Source: a virus (taxonomy: Duplodnaviria > Heunggongvirae > Uroviricota > Caudoviricetes). From it: a DNA stretch of 9,872 nt. The stretch's first letter is position 1. Each line of letters starts with the position of its first letter. This document shows positions 3,374 through 9,872 of the stretch, in pieces. A program made the position numbers and the translations under genes. The stretch lies in IMG/VR virus record IMGVR_UViG_2671180724_000011; one strand, written 5' to 3'. The notes below the pieces were generated by a model, which saw only the letters and a program-made list of their open reading frames with translations, searched no databases and was not told the DNA's origin.

Positions 3374-3649
3374 GTGGCAAAAGTTTTTACTCCCGAACTG
3401 CGGGAAGAAGTGAAGGCGCGCATTGTGGAACTGGTACGCAGAGATGGGCGAAAAACGCGTAAACAACTGGAAAATGAAACCGGGGCGACGAGACACCTGA
3501 TAGAAGTTCTGGTGAAAGAGCTGGTAGTTAGTGGCGCAGTATATGGTTCAGGACATGGAATATTTCCTTCGGAGCAGGCTCGTAAGGACTGGGGAAAAGC
3601 CCGCAAAAAAAATGTCGAGAGCGGCAGTGAAAAAGAAGAGCGACCCTGA
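3374..3649 (+). CDS. hypothetical protein (91 aa, GTG start), likely the N-terminal part of a gene interrupted at an A8 run
   Basis: AGGAGGG 4 nt upstream of GTG 3374; ORF stops shortly after the A8 homopolymer at 3605-3612. Confidence 0.5.
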   Translation: MAKVFTPELREEVKARIVELVRRDGRKTRKQLENETGATRHLIEVLVKELVVSGAVYGSGHGIFPSEQARKDWGKARKKNVESGSEKEERP

Positions 3650-3782
3650 CCTGATTTATTCATTGCTAGATGGCGAAATACGCCGTTACAACAGACGACA
3701 GAATATAATTTGTCGCGAGTGTCGTCAGAGCGAAGTTATGCAGCGCATACTGGAATTTTATCAGGGAAATGTTCGGTATTAA
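3612..3782 (+). CDS. hypothetical protein, C-terminal part (MSRAAVKKKSDPDLIYSLLDGEIRRYNRRQNIICRECRQSEVMQRILEFYQGNVRY); probably fused to 3374-3649 in an intact allele
   Basis: Other frame is open from 3531 and overlaps the 3374 ORF; removing one A from the A8 run joins the two frames into one ORF of about 136 aa. Confidence 0.4.
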   Translation: MSRAAVKKKSDPDLIYSLLDGEIRRYNRRQNIICRECRQSEVMQRILEFYQGNVRY

Positions 3783-3927
3783 TTGAAGTGACGAAATTAA
3801 AGAGCATTAGTTCAGATATTAATTGACACTTCGATGGCACAGGCCCAGACCTAGTCTGGTTGTCAGCTTTGAGCTAGGTGAACGTTGGTATCGTTAGTTT
3901 GTATTAATCAACGGAGAATAGGCCAAA

Positions 3928-3958
3928 TGACTTTTCTTTGCCTCTTTTAATTATAATT
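3928..3958 (+). promoter_or_regulatory. candidate promoter for the large cargo gene inside the AT-rich spacer (-10 TATAAT 3953-3958; weak -35 TGACTT 3928-3933)
   Basis: Consensus -10 hexamer; the -35 is weak and the spacer is about 19 nt, so this is tentative. Confidence 0.25.
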
Positions 3959-4025
3959 CAAGTTCAATTGATTACATTGAAGTACTAATGTGAGTCCGTC
4001 AAACAAATAGCTCAAGGAATAGGTC

Positions 4026-6824
4026 ATGTGGGGAAGTGAAAACAAACAAAATCTGGACGTACTGGATCCTGTGCAGTTGGTGCGTATCGAAGCGGTACAC
4101 CGGGGGTTCCTTTACCAGCATCTTTACGCTGTAGGCTGCTTACTTTTGGCGCAGAGGGCAGCTATGGACTCAGTAACTGTCGAGCTTGATGAGGATATTG
4201 AGCTGAAATCCAAACAGGAACGTCTCTACATTCAGGTTAAAACCCGTTCAAAACCTATTATGCCCAACGATGTGTCGGGGGCTCTGGAGCGATTTGTAAA
4301 GCTCAGAAATGAGCATACTTCGGCAAACCGCGAAGGGGTGGCTTCTTTTGTGATTATTGTAAACCAGGCGCCTGGACCGCTGCTTCAGAAGATGATTGAC
4401 GATAAAAAGCTTCCTTCTGATGTTCTTATTGTCTGGCCCCAGTCGACAGCTGGACGTCACCCGGCACTTCCGCCCGCATGGAGTACTCTGGCTGATGCGG
4501 CCACATGGTGTATCGCAGAAGCAGAAAAGCTGAAATTTTCACTATTGTCCCCAGAATCCTTGATTTGGAAGTTAGCAGGATTGGTTCAGCTTGCCGCCAC
4601 CGGAGGCGATACCAATGGACAACATACGTTTTTCACGGAAGAACTTACTGAACTATTTGAACAGTTGATCGTTCAGCTACAGGACTTTCCTGCACCACCA
4701 GCACTGTACCGCCCACAGAACGAAGAACCTTCTCTCACATCTGGTGAGCGGATCCGTATCCTTTGTGGACTCTCAGGTGCAGGCAAGACAGCTTGGGCCG
4801 CACAGGCCGCATTACACTCCACTGCACTTTGTGCTTATTACGACACCGGTGATCTTCCCGGTCCAGCTCTGGCCAGTACGCTGGTGCGCGAGATGGCTGC
4901 TAGATTTACAGCCCGTGACCAAGACGGTTTGCGCAGGATTTTGCTCCCCGGTGCCAGTGGTTTTGAGGCTCTTAGGAGTTTTGATACCTACCTGAAAGAG
5001 CAGGGTACCACCTTGGTGCTGGTTCTGGATAACGCCCATCGTGTACCTGCGGAAAATCTACTGGATGTTCTGAATGCAACTACACATATTCGTTTTGTGC
5101 TGTTGTGCCAGCCTCACGAAAACGTTCGCGAACTGGAGGTCATGACGGGGCTACAGCGCGAGGGCCTGCAGGGATGGAATCTCGATACGGTAGCTGTCGT
5201 TGTAAACGATATCGGAGGATTTGCCACCGCTATGGGATACGAGCAGCTACGGGCTTACACTGGTGGTCTTCCCCTGTATGTAGAGAGCGCCGCAAAAATC
5301 GCCGTTTCTGATTATGAGCGTAATGTCGATGCTCTGTGTGCTGAACTCCAGCAACAAACCCATACTGCGGAAACCGCCCAAGAAATTATTCTGTCACGTG
5401 TATTTCAGGGATTTGAATCACTACTTCAGAGCGCGCTGGCATTGTTCAGTCTCTCTGACGTAGGGCTGAGTCGCGAAGAGATTTCTACGCTCCTAATCAA
5501 TTCGCTGAACATTTCACCAAGCAGTGCTGCTTCTTTAATTAGGAAAATGCGCGCTACTGGCACTATTGAAATTTATGGAAACCAGACCCTGAAGGTACAT
5601 GATGCTGTCAGGGGGCTAGGACTGCAACATCTGGAACTGATGGATCAGGGTATATCGAACAAAGCGCTACTAGCGCTGAAAGACCTTTTAGTTGAAAGTC
5701 TTCATAATACCCGCAATACAAAACGGTTATCGTTGTTGACTCAACTTTATATTAAGCTCAATGATGTCACGACGTTGATCGAACTCTCAGGCCAAGAAAT
5801 GTTTTATGAGATGGGCGTGACGGTCGACATTCTTGCAAGCTTGGAGCGTGCTGCAACATCGGACTTATTGGGACCTGTTCATAAATTCTGGGCATTGGAT
5901 GGCCTTGTTTTCGTTGAGCTTAAAGACGGAATATCCGACCACATTGCTCAGAGGTTAAACATCATGGGAGCTTTACTTGCGGAGCACAAGTTCGGCTATC
6001 AAGAAGAGATGGCCTATGCAATGAAACGAATGTTATTTTCGGCAGAAAGCAATGATGCACGAGAAGTTCAAAAGCTGGCACAGGAAGTCCGCCCCCAACT
6101 CCCAGATGAAGAACATAAACGCATCTTTGACTACAACCATGCCATTGCACTCTGGAGATTAAAAAAACTCAAGGATGCTGAAACATTAAGCTGTAATGTT
6201 ATACAAGGGTACTATTCTTTATTTGGTATCACACCTGCTGATGTCATAGGAAAAAACGCCGACGCATTATGGAAAACTATTAATCATTCCGAAAATATGC
6301 AGGAACACTTTAAACATATGGCTGATGCTCTGGAGTTGCTGGCCAGAATTCGTGATGCGCAGGGAAAACTGTCACCATTACTGCGTATTCATTCGATGAA
6401 GTTCTACAATCTGGCCATGGCCCCGGAATCCATGGTCAGGGTGGGCCAAGATCTGGCGGATGAGTTTGTTGCCATAAAGGATTACGACGGTGCCAAGGAA
6501 GTCATGGAGCAACATGTCCTGCCGGTTGTCAATGAGGCAGGTCTAGTACATCGACTGATTCAGGTTCGAAGCCAATACGCAGTCATATTAGCACTATCGG
6601 GTCAGCATAAAGCAGCTGATGTCGAAATGCAGCGCCTTGCTCCCTATATCGAAGGCCTCACAGGTGTACAGCGTCAAGAAATCCAAAATCAATCAAATTA
6701 CATCGTACAGCTTGCCCATAAAGCAGCAAAGACTAAATTAACTGAAGTTTTTGGTGCGGTCGGCCGGAATGAACAATGCCCCTGTGGCTCGGGAATAAAG
6801 TACAAAAAATGTCACGGTGCCTGA
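4026..6824 (+). CDS. 932-aa multidomain P-loop NTPase: N-terminal restriction-endonuclease-like region, central Walker A/B NTPase (STAND/AAA+-like), helical C-terminal region, terminal SEC-C-type zinc motif; candidate antiphage defense protein
   Basis: ATG 4026 with AAGGA 7 nt upstream; uninterrupted 2799-nt ORF; Walker A GLSGAGKT (aa 248-255, nt 4767-4790); Walker B-like LVLVLDNAH (aa 330-338); N-terminal RGFLYQ...VELDEDIEL...IQVK (aa 26-72); C-terminal CPCGSGIKYKKCHG (nt 6777-6818). Confidence 0.9.
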   Translation: MWGSENKQNLDVLDPVQLVRIEAVHRGFLYQHLYAVGCLLLAQRAAMDSVTVELDEDIELKSKQERLYIQVKTRSKPIMPNDVSGALERFVKLRNEHTSANREGVASFVIIVNQAPGPLLQKMIDDKKLPSDVLIVWPQSTAGRHPALPPAWSTLADAATWCIAEAEKLKFSLLSPESLIWKLAGLVQLAATGGDTNGQHTFFTEELTELFEQLIVQLQDFPAPPALYRPQNEEPSLTSGERIRILCGLSGAGKTAWAAQAALHSTALCAYYDTGDLPGPALASTLVREMAARFTARDQDGLRRILLPGASGFEALRSFDTYLKEQGTTLVLVLDNAHRVPAENLLDVLNATTHIRFVLLCQPHENVRELEVMTGLQREGLQGWNLDTVAVVVNDIGGFATAMGYEQLRAYTGGLPLYVESAAKIAVSDYERNVDALCAELQQQTHTAETAQEIILSRVFQGFESLLQSALALFSLSDVGLSREEISTLLINSLNISPSSAASLIRKMRATGTIEIYGNQTLKVHDAVRGLGLQHLELMDQGISNKALLALKDLLVESLHNTRNTKRLSLLTQLYIKLNDVTTLIELSGQEMFYEMGVTVDILASLERAATSDLLGPVHKFWALDGLVFVELKDGISDHIAQRLNIMGALLAEHKFGYQEEMAYAMKRMLFSAESNDAREVQKLAQEVRPQLPDEEHKRIFDYNHAIALWRLKKLKDAETLSCNVIQGYYSLFGITPADVIGKNADALWKTINHSENMQEHFKHMADALELLARIRDAQGKLSPLLRIHSMKFYNLAMAPESMVRVGQDLADEFVAIKDYDGAKEVMEQHVLPVVNEAGLVHRLIQVRSQYAVILALSGQHKAADVEMQRLAPYIEGLTGVQRQEIQNQSNYIVQLAHKAAKTKLTEVFGAVGRNEQCPCGSGIKYKKCHGA

Positions 6825-7044
6825 GTCTTTGTACGACCATGCGGGCCTTATTGTCTTGCTATTGCTCTTATGGTTCGCCTTTCTGATTGATTTCATATTG
6901 GCGAGGTGACGGGAGTTAAGTAGAATGGCTGCGGGTGCTTGAGGCTATCTGTCTCAGGCATGAACACCAAAGGCAGATAGAGAAAAGCCCCAGTTAACAT
7001 TACGCGTCCTGCAAGACGCTTAACATTAATCTGAGGCTCAATCT

Positions 7045-7257
7045 ATGAACGGCAAATCTAGGTTAGCCTCTTACGTGCCGAAAGGCAAGGAGAAGCAGGC
7101 TATGAAGCAGCAAAAGGCGATGTTAATCGTCCTGATCGTCATCTGTTTAACCGTCATAGTGACGGCACTGGTAACGAGGAAAGACCTCTGCGAGGTACGA
7201 ATCCGAACCGGCCAGACGGAGGTCGCTGTCTTCACAGCTTACGAACCTGAGGAGTAA
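7045..7257 (+). CDS. mok-like in-frame upstream extension of hok (70 aa)
   Basis: ATG 7045 in frame with hok and sharing its stop, as I recall for chromosomal mok/hok pairs such as mokC/hokC. Confidence 0.45.
   Translation: MNGKSRLASYVPKGKEKQAMKQQKAMLIVLIVICLTVIVTALVTRKDLCEVRIRTGQTEVAVFTAYEPEE
7102..7257 (+). CDS. hokD: Hok/Gef-family type I toxin, HokD (RelF)-like, 51 aa
   Basis: MKQQKAMLIVLIVICLTVIVTALVTRKDLCEVRIRTGQTEVAVFTAYEPEE is near-identical to the HokD sequence as I remember it; single transmembrane helix and conserved C-terminal Cys/Tyr segment; stop TAA 7255-7257. Confidence 0.85.
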   Translation: MKQQKAMLIVLIVICLTVIVTALVTRKDLCEVRIRTGQTEVAVFTAYEPEE

Positions 7258-7327
7258 GAGACCAGGCGGGGGAGAAATCCCTCGCCACCTCTGATGTGTC
7301 AGGCATCCTCAATGCACCCGCACTTAA

Positions 7328-7352
7328 CCCGCTTCGGCGGGTTTTGTTTTTT
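7328..7352 (+). terminator. Rho-independent terminator after hok (CCCGC-TTCG-GCGGG followed by TTTTGTTTTTT)
   Basis: GC stem 7328-7332 / 7337-7341 with 4-nt loop and an 11-nt T-rich tract. Confidence 0.75.
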
Positions 7353-7424
7353 CCTGGCATTCTGGTTTACAATTCGCACGCCAGCCTGAACAACTGGCAC
7401 CTGCTGCGCCAGCAGAGACAACCG

Positions 7425-7703
7425 ATGGCGCACGATACCAAATTACACAATTCTAATGATTCTGCTGTCTTTGCCAGCAGGTGCGGACGGCGTTTTCACG
7501 CATTCACATCAGACTGGTTCCAGCATCCTCCATGCACTGAAGAGCAGGCTGAATGGATAATTCAGTGTTACCGCAGGCGTGGATACGAGGTTAAGAAAGC
7601 TCTTAGTCTCGACTATCGTCACTGGATAATCTCAGTCAGACTCCCTTACTCCGAACGCCCACCGCGTCCGTCCCGCACATTCCAGCAACGCATCTGGAGG
7701 TAA
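7425..7703 (+). CDS. small prophage protein, copy 1 (92 aa), in the rem position downstream of hokD
   Basis: ATG 7425; the track's longer 7296 start would run through the hok terminator; C-terminal 70 aa nearly identical to copies 2 and 3, N-terminal 24 aa diverged. Confidence 0.65.
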   Translation: MAHDTKLHNSNDSAVFASRCGRRFHAFTSDWFQHPPCTEEQAEWIIQCYRRRGYEVKKALSLDYRHWIISVRLPYSERPPRPSRTFQQRIWR

Positions 7704-7704
7704 C

Positions 7705-8076
7705 GTGCGGGTATTACTTCGACCTGTTCTGGTACCGGAACTCGGGCTGGTGATCGTTAAGCCGGGCCGTGAATCCATGCCGGTATTCCACAATACCCGG
7801 GTACTGGTGGAGCCGGAACCGAAAAGCATGCGTAATCTGCCGTCCGGGGTCGTTCCTGCCGTTCGCCAGCCGCTGGTGGAAGACAAAACATTGCTGCCGT
7901 TTTTCAGTAACGCACGGGTGATTCGTGCTGCTGGTGGTGCTGGTGCATTGTCTGACTGGCTGTTGCGCCATATTAAATCCTGCCAGTGGCCACACGGCGA
8001 TTATCATCACAGCGAAACCGTCATTCACCGTTATGGTACCGGCGCAATGGTGTTGTGCTGGCACTGCGACAACCAG
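7705..8076 (+). CDS. GTG-start protein, copy 1, truncated by an N-run; possibly DUF968/YdfU-like
   Basis: GGAGG then TAA stop of the upstream gene then GTG 7705 (coupled); Cys/His-rich segment HIKSCQWPHGDYHH...CWHCDNQ; ORF runs into Ns at 8077. Confidence 0.55.
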
Positions 8077-8087
8077 NNNNNNNNNNN
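8077..8087. other. run of 11 N (gap or masked bases)
   Basis: Literal n characters in the sequence. Confidence 1.
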
Positions 8088-8182
8088 CAGGCTTTTCAGC
8101 TTTTGCAGAAGAATAAACTCATCTACAATCTTGCGCGGGGCTGAACTCCCGCTGAGTAACACCGTGCCACCGGAGAAAACCG

Positions 8183-8461
8183 ATGGCACGCAACGTAAAA
8201 TATTACAATTCTGATAATTCGCCCGTTCTTGCCTGCACGCACGAGCGGTATTCTCACGCATTCAAGTCTGAATGGTTCCAACACCCTCCATGTACTGAAG
8301 AGCAGGCTGAATGGATAATTCAGTGTTACCGCAGGCGCGGATACGAGGTTAAGAAAGCCCTTAGTCTCGACTACCGTCACTGGATAATCTCCGTCAGGCT
8401 TCCTTACTCTGAACGCCCACCGCGTCCGTCTCGCACATTCCAGCAACGCATCTGGAGGTAA
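8183..8461 (+). CDS. small prophage protein, copy 2 (92 aa)
   Basis: ATG 8183 with GGAG 7 nt upstream; identical in protein sequence to copy 3 over its full length. Confidence 0.7.
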   Translation: MARNVKYYNSDNSPVLACTHERYSHAFKSEWFQHPPCTEEQAEWIIQCYRRRGYEVKKALSLDYRHWIISVRLPYSERPPRPSRTFQQRIWR

Positions 8462-8462
8462 C

Positions 8463-9076
8463 GTGCGGGTATTACTTCGACCTGTTCTGGTACCGGAACT
8501 CGGGCTGGTGATCGTTAAGCCGGGCCGTGAATCCATGCCGGTATTCCACAATACCCGGGTACTGGTGGAGCCGGAACCGAAAAGCATGCGTAATCTGCCG
8601 TCCGGGGTCGTTCCTGCCGTTCGCCAGCCGCTGGTGGAAGACAAAACATTGCTGCCGTTTTTCAGTAACGCACGGGTAATTCGTGCTGCTGGTGGTGCTG
8701 GTGCATTGTCTGACTGGCTGTTGTGCCATATTAAATCCTGCCAGTGGCCACACGGCGATTATCATCACAGCGAAACCGTCATTCACCGTTATGGTACCGG
8801 CGCAATGGTGTTGTGCTGGCACTGCGACAACCAGCTGCGTGACCAGACATCCGAATCACTCGGGCAACTTGCTCATCAAAACCTGTCAGCATGGATGATT
8901 GACGTCATCGGTCACGCAATAAGCGGTACGCAGGAGCGTGAATTATCTTTGGCTGAATTATCCTGGTGGGCGGTCCGCAATCAGGTGGCGGACGCGCTAC
9001 CGGAAGCGGTATTACGTCGTTCGCTGGGGTTGCGTGCGGAAAAAATCCGCTCAATGTACCGTGAAAGCGACATCGT
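8463..9076 (+). CDS. GTG-start protein, copy 2, truncated by an N-run after about 204 codons; possibly DUF968/YdfU-like
   Basis: Same coupled GTG start; extends about 80 codons beyond the point where copy 1 is cut; runs into Ns at 9077. Confidence 0.6.
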
Positions 9077-9087
9077 NNNNNNNNNNN
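9077..9087. other. run of 11 N (gap or masked bases)
   Basis: Literal n characters; exactly 1000 bp from the first N-run. Confidence 1.
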
Positions 9088-9182
9088 CAGGCTTTTCAGC
9101 TTTTGCAGAAGAATAAACTCATCTACAATCTTGCGCGGGGCTGAACTCCCGCTGAGTAACACCGTGCCACCGGAGAAAACCG

Positions 9183-9461
9183 ATGGCACGCAACGTAAAA
9201 TATTACAATTCTGATAATTCGCCCGTTCTTGCCTGCACGCACGAGCGGTATTCTCACGCATTCAAGTCTGAATGGTTCCAACACCCTCCATGTACTGAAG
9301 AGCAGGCTGAATGGATAATTCAGTGTTACCGCAGGCGCGGATACGAGGTTAAGAAAGCCCTTAGTCTCGACTACCGTCACTGGATAATCTCCGTCAGGCT
9401 TCCTTACTCTGAACGCCCACCGCGTCCGTCTCGCACATTCCAGCAACGCATCTGGAGGTAA
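9183..9461 (+). CDS. small prophage protein, copy 3 (92 aa)
   Basis: Exactly 1000 bp downstream of copy 2; identical protein sequence. Confidence 0.7.
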   Translation: MARNVKYYNSDNSPVLACTHERYSHAFKSEWFQHPPCTEEQAEWIIQCYRRRGYEVKKALSLDYRHWIISVRLPYSERPPRPSRTFQQRIWR

Positions 9462-9462
9462 C

Positions 9463-9872
9463 GTGCGGGTATTACTTCGACCTGTTCTGGTACCGGAACT
9501 CGGGCTGGTGATCGTTAAGCCGGGCCGTGAATCCATGCCAGTATTCCACAATACCCGGGTATTGATGGAGCCGGAACCGAAAAGCATGCGTAATCTGCCG
9601 TCCGGGGTCGTTCCTGCCGTTCGCCAGCCGCTGGAGGAAGACAAAACATTGCTGCCGTTTTTCAGTAACGCACGGGTGATTCGTGCTGCTGGTGGTGCTG
9701 GTGCATTGTCTGACTGGCTGTTGCGCCATATTAAATCCTGCCAGTGGCCACACGGCGATTATCATCACAGCGAAACCGTCATTCACCGTTATGGTACCGG
9801 CGCAATGGTGTTGTGCTGGCACTGCGACAACCAGTTGCGTGACCAGACCTCCGAATCACTCGAGCAACTTGC
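9463..9872 (+). CDS. GTG-start protein, copy 3, partial (runs off the window end); possibly DUF968/YdfU-like
   Basis: GTG 9463 with the same coupled context; no stop before the window end, so absent from the ORF track; a handful of substitutions relative to copy 2. Confidence 0.6.
   Translation, partial: MRVLLRPVLVPELGLVIVKPGRESMPVFHNTRVLMEPEPKSMRNLPSGVVPAVRQPLEEDKTLLPFFSNARVIRAAGGAGALSDWLLRHIKSCQWPHGDYHHSETVIHRYGTGAMVLCWHCDNQLRDQTSESLEQL

Follow-up and report, generated by a model that had tools for sequence, protein, structure and literature searches.

The window analysed here is a stretch of 9,872 nucleotides from a Caudoviricetes record in IMG/VR (IMGVR_UViG_2671180724_000011), and its single large open reading frame (4026..6824 on the plus strand, with an ATG at 4026) encodes a 932-residue protein whose N-terminal head is predicted to be a Cap4-type DNA nuclease. 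The protein is identical to RefSeq WP_000264572.1, which is named there "SEC-C metal-binding domain-containing protein". Pfam matches and a full-length structural model both display a tripartite plan within this one gene: an N-terminal effector, an NTPase and a C-terminal repeat sensor (Table 1). A preliminary description of this DNA, made from its letters, had placed a candidate PD-(D/E)xK-like catalytic core at residues 50-72 of the frame, and counting codons from the ATG reproduces its coordinates and residue numbers exactly: nucleotides 4173-4241 are codons 50-72 and encode VTVELDEDIELKSKQERLYIQVK. A 70-residue open reading frame on the minus strand (4248..4460), which lies inside the gene just 3' of this core, was treated as spurious.

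Table 1. Features of the 932-residue protein and its gene, with the regions used for comparison. Positions are those of the window unless a comparison locus is named.
Feature	Residues	Position	Strand	Basis or remarks
Whole gene: Cap4-nuclease / STAND NTPase / TPR-like / SEC-C protein (predicted)	1-932	4026..6824	+	Pfam, full-length model
N-terminal Cap4-type PD-(D/E)xK nuclease domain (predicted)	~12-220	4059..4685	+	
Helix alpha-1 with HRGFLYQH motif	25-42	4098..4151	+	H25, G27, Q31, H32 at least 95% conserved
Predicted catalytic core, strands 1-3: E53, D55, E56, D57, E59, Q70, K72	50-72	4173..4241	+	Invariance, HamA/LmuA alignment
Key codons	E53 / D55 / D57 / Q70 / K72	4182-4184 / 4188-4190 / 4194-4196 / 4233-4235 / 4239-4241	+	
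STAND/AAA+ nucleotide-binding (alpha/beta P-loop) domain	240-375	4743..5150	+	Pfam AAA_22, AAA_16, model, Foldseek
Walker A, GLSGAGKT	248-255	4767-4790	+	
Walker B, LVLVLDN	330-336	5013-5033	+	
Helical (ARC-like) domain	386-474	5181..5447	+	GLPL motif, residues 414-417, at 5265-5276
Winged-helix domain	483-538	5472..5639	+	Invariant K523, H525, D526; VHD at 524-526
C-terminal all-helical TPR-like solenoid, presumed sensor	541-909	5646..6752	+	Model pLDDT mostly 85-95; TPR/APC/LGN matches and 6mfv
SEC-C zinc-binding motif (CPCGSG...KCH)	914-931	6765..6818	+	Pfam SEC-C, 38.8 bits
Comparison locus for the cargo slot		L006 2135-2800		
Neighbour regions of homologues		L002 3754-7778; L007 4511-7655; L003 10860-11762		

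Taken as a bare pattern ([DE]x[DE]x8-20[EQD]xK), the motif of the core is not above chance, with one end position in the protein versus 1.16 ± 1.07 in 1000 composition-preserving shuffles of it; what supports the assignment is therefore profile matches, conservation and predicted fold. The Pfam profile Cap4_nuclease (PF14130), whose curated gathering cut-off is 26.2 bits, matches residues 25-77 of the full-length protein with 27.1 bits, and residues 25-82 with 29.0 bits when the N-terminal 230 residues are searched alone, which is the search that the preliminary description had proposed. In PADLOC, the LmuA model matches residues 26-119 (E 1.6e-7), weaker matches to the head come from HamA (residues 23-75) and DUF4297, and all nuclease matches fall within residues 23-119; NCBIfam adds a weak match to DUF4297_antiphage. 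Against PDB sequences, a profile of the N-terminal domain reached HamA and LmuA weakly (E 0.058 and 0.62), and searches with the single protein or a full-length profile returned SEC-C peptides only. PHROGs gave nothing for the N-terminal domain, its match being the SEC-C tail only. The preliminary description had likened the HRGFLYQH stretch within residues 25-42 (HRGFLYQHLYAVGCLLLA) to the way Cap4 domains begin, and in the alignment GFLFQ (HamA) and GFNYQ (LmuA) do stand opposite it.

The residues of the core are strongly conserved. In 116 full-length relatives (49-99% identity), D57, E59, Y68, Q70, K72 and R74 are found in 100% and E53, D55 and E56 in 97-99%, and in 33 divergent N-terminal fragments (39-76% identity) E53, D55, E56, D57, E59, Q70 and K72 are among only 19 invariant columns. 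A further set, taken from an exhaustive search with the N-terminal domain profile across 1.84 billion cluster representatives, consists of the query and 101 representatives of 50% clusters, all of at least 800 residues and with 34-57% identity over the first 300 residues; here D57, Q70 and K72 are present in 102/102, as is the Walker A lysine K254, D55 in 101, E53 in 100 (the other two have D), and E56 and E59 in 97 each. That search yielded 439 proteins at E ≤ 1e-3, of which the full-length ones among the 150 matches listed are nearly all about 880-1100 residues long; thus the Cap4 nuclease subtype of this protein is essentially dedicated to one architecture. A word-index search for homologues with residues 1-235 gave only truncated copies of this family, many in number, and no new architectures.

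Alignment of the N-terminal domain profile to proteins of known structure assigns likely roles to these residues. D57 lies opposite D45 of HamA (D72 of chain 8zue_A, which has a 27-residue tag offset), Q70 and K72 lie opposite native HamA Q58 and K60, and the residues opposite these three in LmuA (9ux7_C) are D, Q and K. In HamA, D45, Q58 and K60 are Cap4-type active-site residues common to CBASS Cap4, the D45A and K60A substitutions abolish DNA cleavage by HamAB, and alanine substitutions at the D45, Q58 and K60 sites abolish phage defence (PMC11914072). In Vibrio LmuA, K57 is reportedly essential for both DNA degradation and phage protection (PMC12663957). As for the other acidic residues, E53 aligns with E in both HamA and LmuA, and E56 and E59 each align with D in HamA and E in LmuA, whereas D55 has no acidic counterpart (T in HamA, Q in LmuA). 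Hence, of the four residues first proposed as the active site (D55, D57, Q70 and K72), the last three retain that role and D55 does not. Because D55 aligns with T and Q, the canonical metal-binding aspartate is predicted to be D57, with D55 as a family-specific invariant acidic residue; an accessory role would fall to the acidic E53, E56 and E59. By homology to the solved active sites, D57, Q70 and K72 are predicted to cluster as a metal-binding triad.

The predicted fold agrees with this assignment. An AlphaFold2 model of residues 1-235, built on a 40-sequence alignment, has a mean predicted local distance difference test score (pLDDT) of 82.4, at least 90 across most of residues 30-140, and a predicted template modelling score (pTM) of 0.81. 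Its secondary structure comprises a helix (29-42), three strands (49-52, 58-61 and 65-72), a second helix (80-98) and a fourth strand (105-112), and this modelled alpha-beta-beta-beta-alpha-beta arrangement is that of the core of PD-(D/E)xK (restriction-endonuclease) enzymes, with D57 directly before strand 2 and Q70 and K72 at the end of strand 3. In Foldseek searches of the PDB, Cap4-type nucleases rank on top, led by HamA of Hachiman (8zue_A, E 2.3e-6), and the other matches include Acinetobacter Cap4 (6wan/6wam/6vm6), MspJI, LmuA (9nxx, 9ux7, 9hr5), SeAvs3 (8dgc_A) and HerA-DUF4297 (9c1m). The preliminary description had tied its reading to a restriction-endonuclease-like fold, and a confident core of this kind, not the lack of one, is what the model gives. 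The Pfam and PADLOC profiles, the invariance of the residues and the predicted fold thus all support its reading of an acidic cluster followed by QxK as a PD-(D/E)xK-like core, and an intact Cap4-type nuclease active site at residues 50-72 is very likely.

One may argue that the head has the Cap4 fold yet is catalytically dead and plays a structural part, as an oligomerisation or DNA-binding scaffold like the DUF1837 domain of type I-B HamA, the protein then acting via ATP depletion or via sequestration of a host factor by its SEC-C motif. Defence proteins with inactive PD-(D/E)xK scaffolds are known (PMC11914072), the Pfam match spans only one third of its profile, and the nuclease activity of the head is itself predicted from sequence. 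Nevertheless, the equivalents of the HamA catalytic triad are all present and 100% invariant in the family, and E53, D55, E56 and E59 each show conservation of 95% or more; purifying selection on both an acidic cluster and QxK would be unexpected in a dead scaffold. In addition, no second effector domain was detected in the protein with Pfam, PADLOC, NCBIfam, PHROGs or the full-length model. We therefore regard a dead head as improbable.

Beyond the nuclease head, the protein has the sequence and fold hallmarks of a STAND NTPase. Pfam AAA_22 and AAA_16 match residues 239-364, and Walker A and Walker B are followed by a helical domain with GLPL and by a winged helix whose histidine is conserved. 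Moreover, K254, D335, G414, P416, H525 and D526 are invariant in the family, and we take the VHD triplet of the winged helix to be MHD-like, as in NB-ARC proteins. The best Foldseek match of the full-length model (pLDDT 80.5) is the PH0952-type STAND-TPR protein 6mfv_A (E 1e-13, TM-score 0.47 on the target), the likeness lying in the NTPase, winged-helix and TPR part; 6MFV is without a nuclease effector head and without a known defence role. SeAvs3 follows (8dgc_A, E 2.7e-11), and further matches, plant NLRs among them, are a wheat resistosome, CED-4, Cdc6, Roq1 and RPP1. The plan of effector, STAND NTPase and repeat sensor is common to Avs proteins, and by its modelled architecture the 932-residue protein appears to be an Avs-like relative of bacterial NLRs. 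Cap4 heads that turn active on tetramerisation are known from several Avs proteins, such as SeAvs3 and SeAvs7 (PMC13581612), and the same mode of activation is described for LmuA (PMC12663957). There are also clear differences: the SeAvs3 chain (PDB 8DGC) has 2028 residues versus 932 here, the sensor region here is only about 370-390 residues, and the C-terminal SEC-C zinc motif has no mention in the Avs paper (PMC13581612).

Since the top structural neighbours of the head come from Lamassu, Hachiman, CBASS and HerA-DUF4297 systems, and its best PADLOC match is LmuA, with matches to the HamA and DUF4297 models too, the protein could be a stray component of one of these multi-gene Cap4-nuclease systems whose partners lie elsewhere. 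Each of these systems was considered in turn. CBASS Cap4 (PF14130; PDB 6VM6/6WAN/7YIB) combines a SAVED/CARF sensor with a CD-NTase operon, whereas the present protein has neither; membership was rejected, as no SAVED match was found with Pfam or PADLOC and the neighbouring genes are DUF977 and hokD. Its activation is presumably by STAND oligomerisation and not by a cyclic oligonucleotide as in Cap4. HamA of type I-B Hachiman (8ZUE) has a DUF1837 domain and works with a separate HamB helicase, and LmuA of Lamassu (9UX7/9NXX) has an ABC-3C C-terminal domain and separate SMC-like LmuB/LmuC, whereas here NTPase and sensor are fused in cis to the nuclease. Membership of Hachiman was rejected on the short cover of the HamA model and the lack of an adjacent helicase gene in E. 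coli, that of Lamassu on the partial cover of the LmuA model and the lack of an adjacent SMC gene, and that of HerA-DUF4297 because the defining partner domains and genes are absent. More generally, the PADLOC matches are confined to the head, no SAVED, DUF1837 or ABC-3C C-terminal domain is found in the protein, the gene has no SMC/LmuB, HamB helicase, CD-NTase or HerA neighbour in E. coli, and the protein brings its own NTPase and sensor, with nearly all full-length relatives listed having a length (about 880-1100 residues) that fits the same architecture. A stray component is thus extremely improbable, the least probable of the alternatives weighed here. Full-text literature searches found no description of the SEC-C/Cap4/STAND/TPR architecture; neither SEC-C nor Cap4 occurs in the domain-centric discovery paper or in the DefensePredictor paper, the latter containing "STAND" only within other words.

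The genomic setting bears on whether the gene serves immunity or the prophage itself. In E. coli, the gene is found in 16 of 5426 complete genomes, 99.4-100% identical and always chromosomal, and it sits between DUF977 and hokD of a Rac-like prophage, in an early-right operon setting near YdaS/YdaT, DUF977, DUF968 and RusA genes. In related E. coli prophages the DUF977-hokD interval (3782 to 7045 of the window) serves as a slot for variable cargo: the flanks are kept, and between them lie QueH (strain KE51), DUF7167, or hypothetical genes, two to four in number. The G+C content of the gene is not distinct from that of its flanks, and a scan for promoters and terminators around it gave nothing over shuffled expectation.

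Outside E. coli, the family of about 930-residue proteins extends to Enterobacterales, Vibrio, Shewanella, Aeromonas, Pseudomonas, Alteromonas and others. Judged on the four contexts inspected, homologues occur outside prophages in chromosomal defence islands and in a metal-resistance island. Those of Vibrio cholerae and Yersinia enterocolitica directly adjoin a Gabija-like pair of OLD-TOPRIM/AAA_15 and UvrD-helicase genes, with AAA_13 genes also near, the Vibrio locus also has PIN and AbiH genes, and in three Pseudomonas loci an AbiH gene starts about 60 nucleotides downstream of the homologue. No partner gene is kept across the inspected contexts, and for this reason the gene is most simply a one-gene system.

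These contexts also help to judge a non-immune role, in which the protein would be a replication, recombination or regulatory factor of the phage, either a STAND-type regulator or a DNA-processing nuclease, used in the prophage life cycle. The position of the gene between replication genes and RusA/Q in the early-right operon, near YdaS/YdaT, DUF977 and DUF968, would suit such a role. Against it, the gene is missing from nearly all related prophages, where unrelated cargo takes the same slot, a megablast search of 50,697 phage records with the gene returned no match, PHROGs has no match beyond the SEC-C tail, no helix-turn-helix output domain was found in the protein, and homologues lie in islands outside prophages. 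A non-immune role is accordingly very improbable.

The gene shows several traces of decay. The 144-residue protein P0225, found on 234 contigs of the Klebsiella pneumoniae complex and widespread in Klebsiella, is an in-frame deletion remnant in which residues 1-90 are fused to residues 878-932, so that the intact ELDEDIEL...QVK core and the SEC-C tail are kept. ISEc52 interrupts one E. coli copy, whose N-terminal fragment is annotated "dsDNA nuclease domain-containing protein". This remnant, the split copy and the many truncated copies mentioned above suggest frequent decay of the gene.

Other features of the window concern its flanks. The upstream DUF977 gene (3374-3782) is split into overlapping open reading frames (3374..3649 and 3531..3782) and carries the annotation of a frameshifted pseudogene in the RefSeq genome that is identical. 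Directly downstream of the large gene lies a complete hok/sok type I toxin-antitoxin locus (Rfam sok RF01794 at 6933-7107, 110 bits; the hokD frame ends at 7257). Further on, 7296-9872 holds several near-identical copies of a hypothetical/DUF968 region, the window is colinear with a complete genome until about 8076, and two 11-N runs (8077-8087 and 9077-9087) lie exactly 1000 nucleotides apart, with 300 nucleotides from each run (N included) being identical. The N runs and repeats suggest joins made during scaffolding or assembly where a prophage segment is repeated, and not true tandem biology.

The SEC-C tail (residues 914-931) is nearly identical to the metal-binding peptides of SecA and YchJ in the PDB, and PADLOC models of E2/E1-E2 and PDC-S12 match it as well. 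Its residues C918, C920, C929 and H930 are at least 90% conserved, and the motif is absent from a few family members. The metal-binding peptide of SecA docks on SecB and ribosomes (bioRxiv 10.1101/613315), and the lactococcal defence protein Rugutis carries a SEC-C motif (PMC11381338). One speculative and rather unlikely extension is that the tail tethers the immune sensor to SecB or the ribosome, or uses a host factor as a co-sensor or structural part, like EF-Tu in SeAvs7, in which case the protein would belong to a small unnumbered Avs-type family with host-factor-dependent activation.

Putting these lines together, we propose, with a probability of roughly 80%, that the head is the Cap4 DNase effector of an Avs-like single-polypeptide STAND NTPase that is carried by a prophage as anti-phage cargo; catalysis, trigger, oligomerisation and the defence or toxic outcome are inferred parts of this picture. 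The metal-binding catalytic triad would consist of D57, where strand 2 begins, and of Q70-x-K72 in strand 3, in a nuclease that is presumably kept inactive at rest. By analogy with SeAvs3, SeAvs7 and LmuA, a phage-derived trigger would bind the C-terminal TPR-like solenoid, and its binding would make the NTPase exchange its nucleotide and form oligomers. The nuclease heads might thereby be brought together into an active, probably tetrameric DNase, which would degrade double-stranded DNA and abort the infection. The gene may in this way act as prophage cargo that shields the lysogen from other phages.

Several points weigh against this proposal. The match to PF14130 is limited to positions 7-68 of the 200 in the profile and is only 1-3 bits over the cut-off, and TM-scores against solved Cap4 domains are only about 0.5. 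The middle catalytic position is Q, not D or E, which is usual in Cap4-type domains, unlike in classical restriction enzymes. The packing of the domains against one another is uncertain in the full-length model (pTM 0.52). No Avs/AVAST model (PADLOC 2023, Avs1-5, at E ≤ 1), NLR or bNACHT model of PADLOC matches the NTPase or sensor part, and none of the solved Avs proteins (Avs2/3/4/5/7) matches by sequence; the kinship with Avs proteins is therefore architectural and structural only. Finally, no experiment on this family was found in the literature.

That the protein has a Cap4 head was already within reach of public profiles; what is unusual about it is its small size and its SEC-C zinc tail, and its RefSeq name conceals the likely function. 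If the nuclease is active and gated by a trigger, the protein would, with its 932 residues, be among the more compact immune receptors that join a Cap4 nuclease to a STAND NTPase. It would add one further family to the Avs-type repertoire and provide a small, tractable model for the activation of a Cap4 nuclease through STAND oligomerisation. In addition, the presence of a SecA-like zinc tail on an immune sensor raises the concrete question of what role it plays there. Its gene is exchangeable cargo of E. coli prophages, with relatives spread in Enterobacterales, Vibrio, Shewanella, Pseudomonas and beyond.

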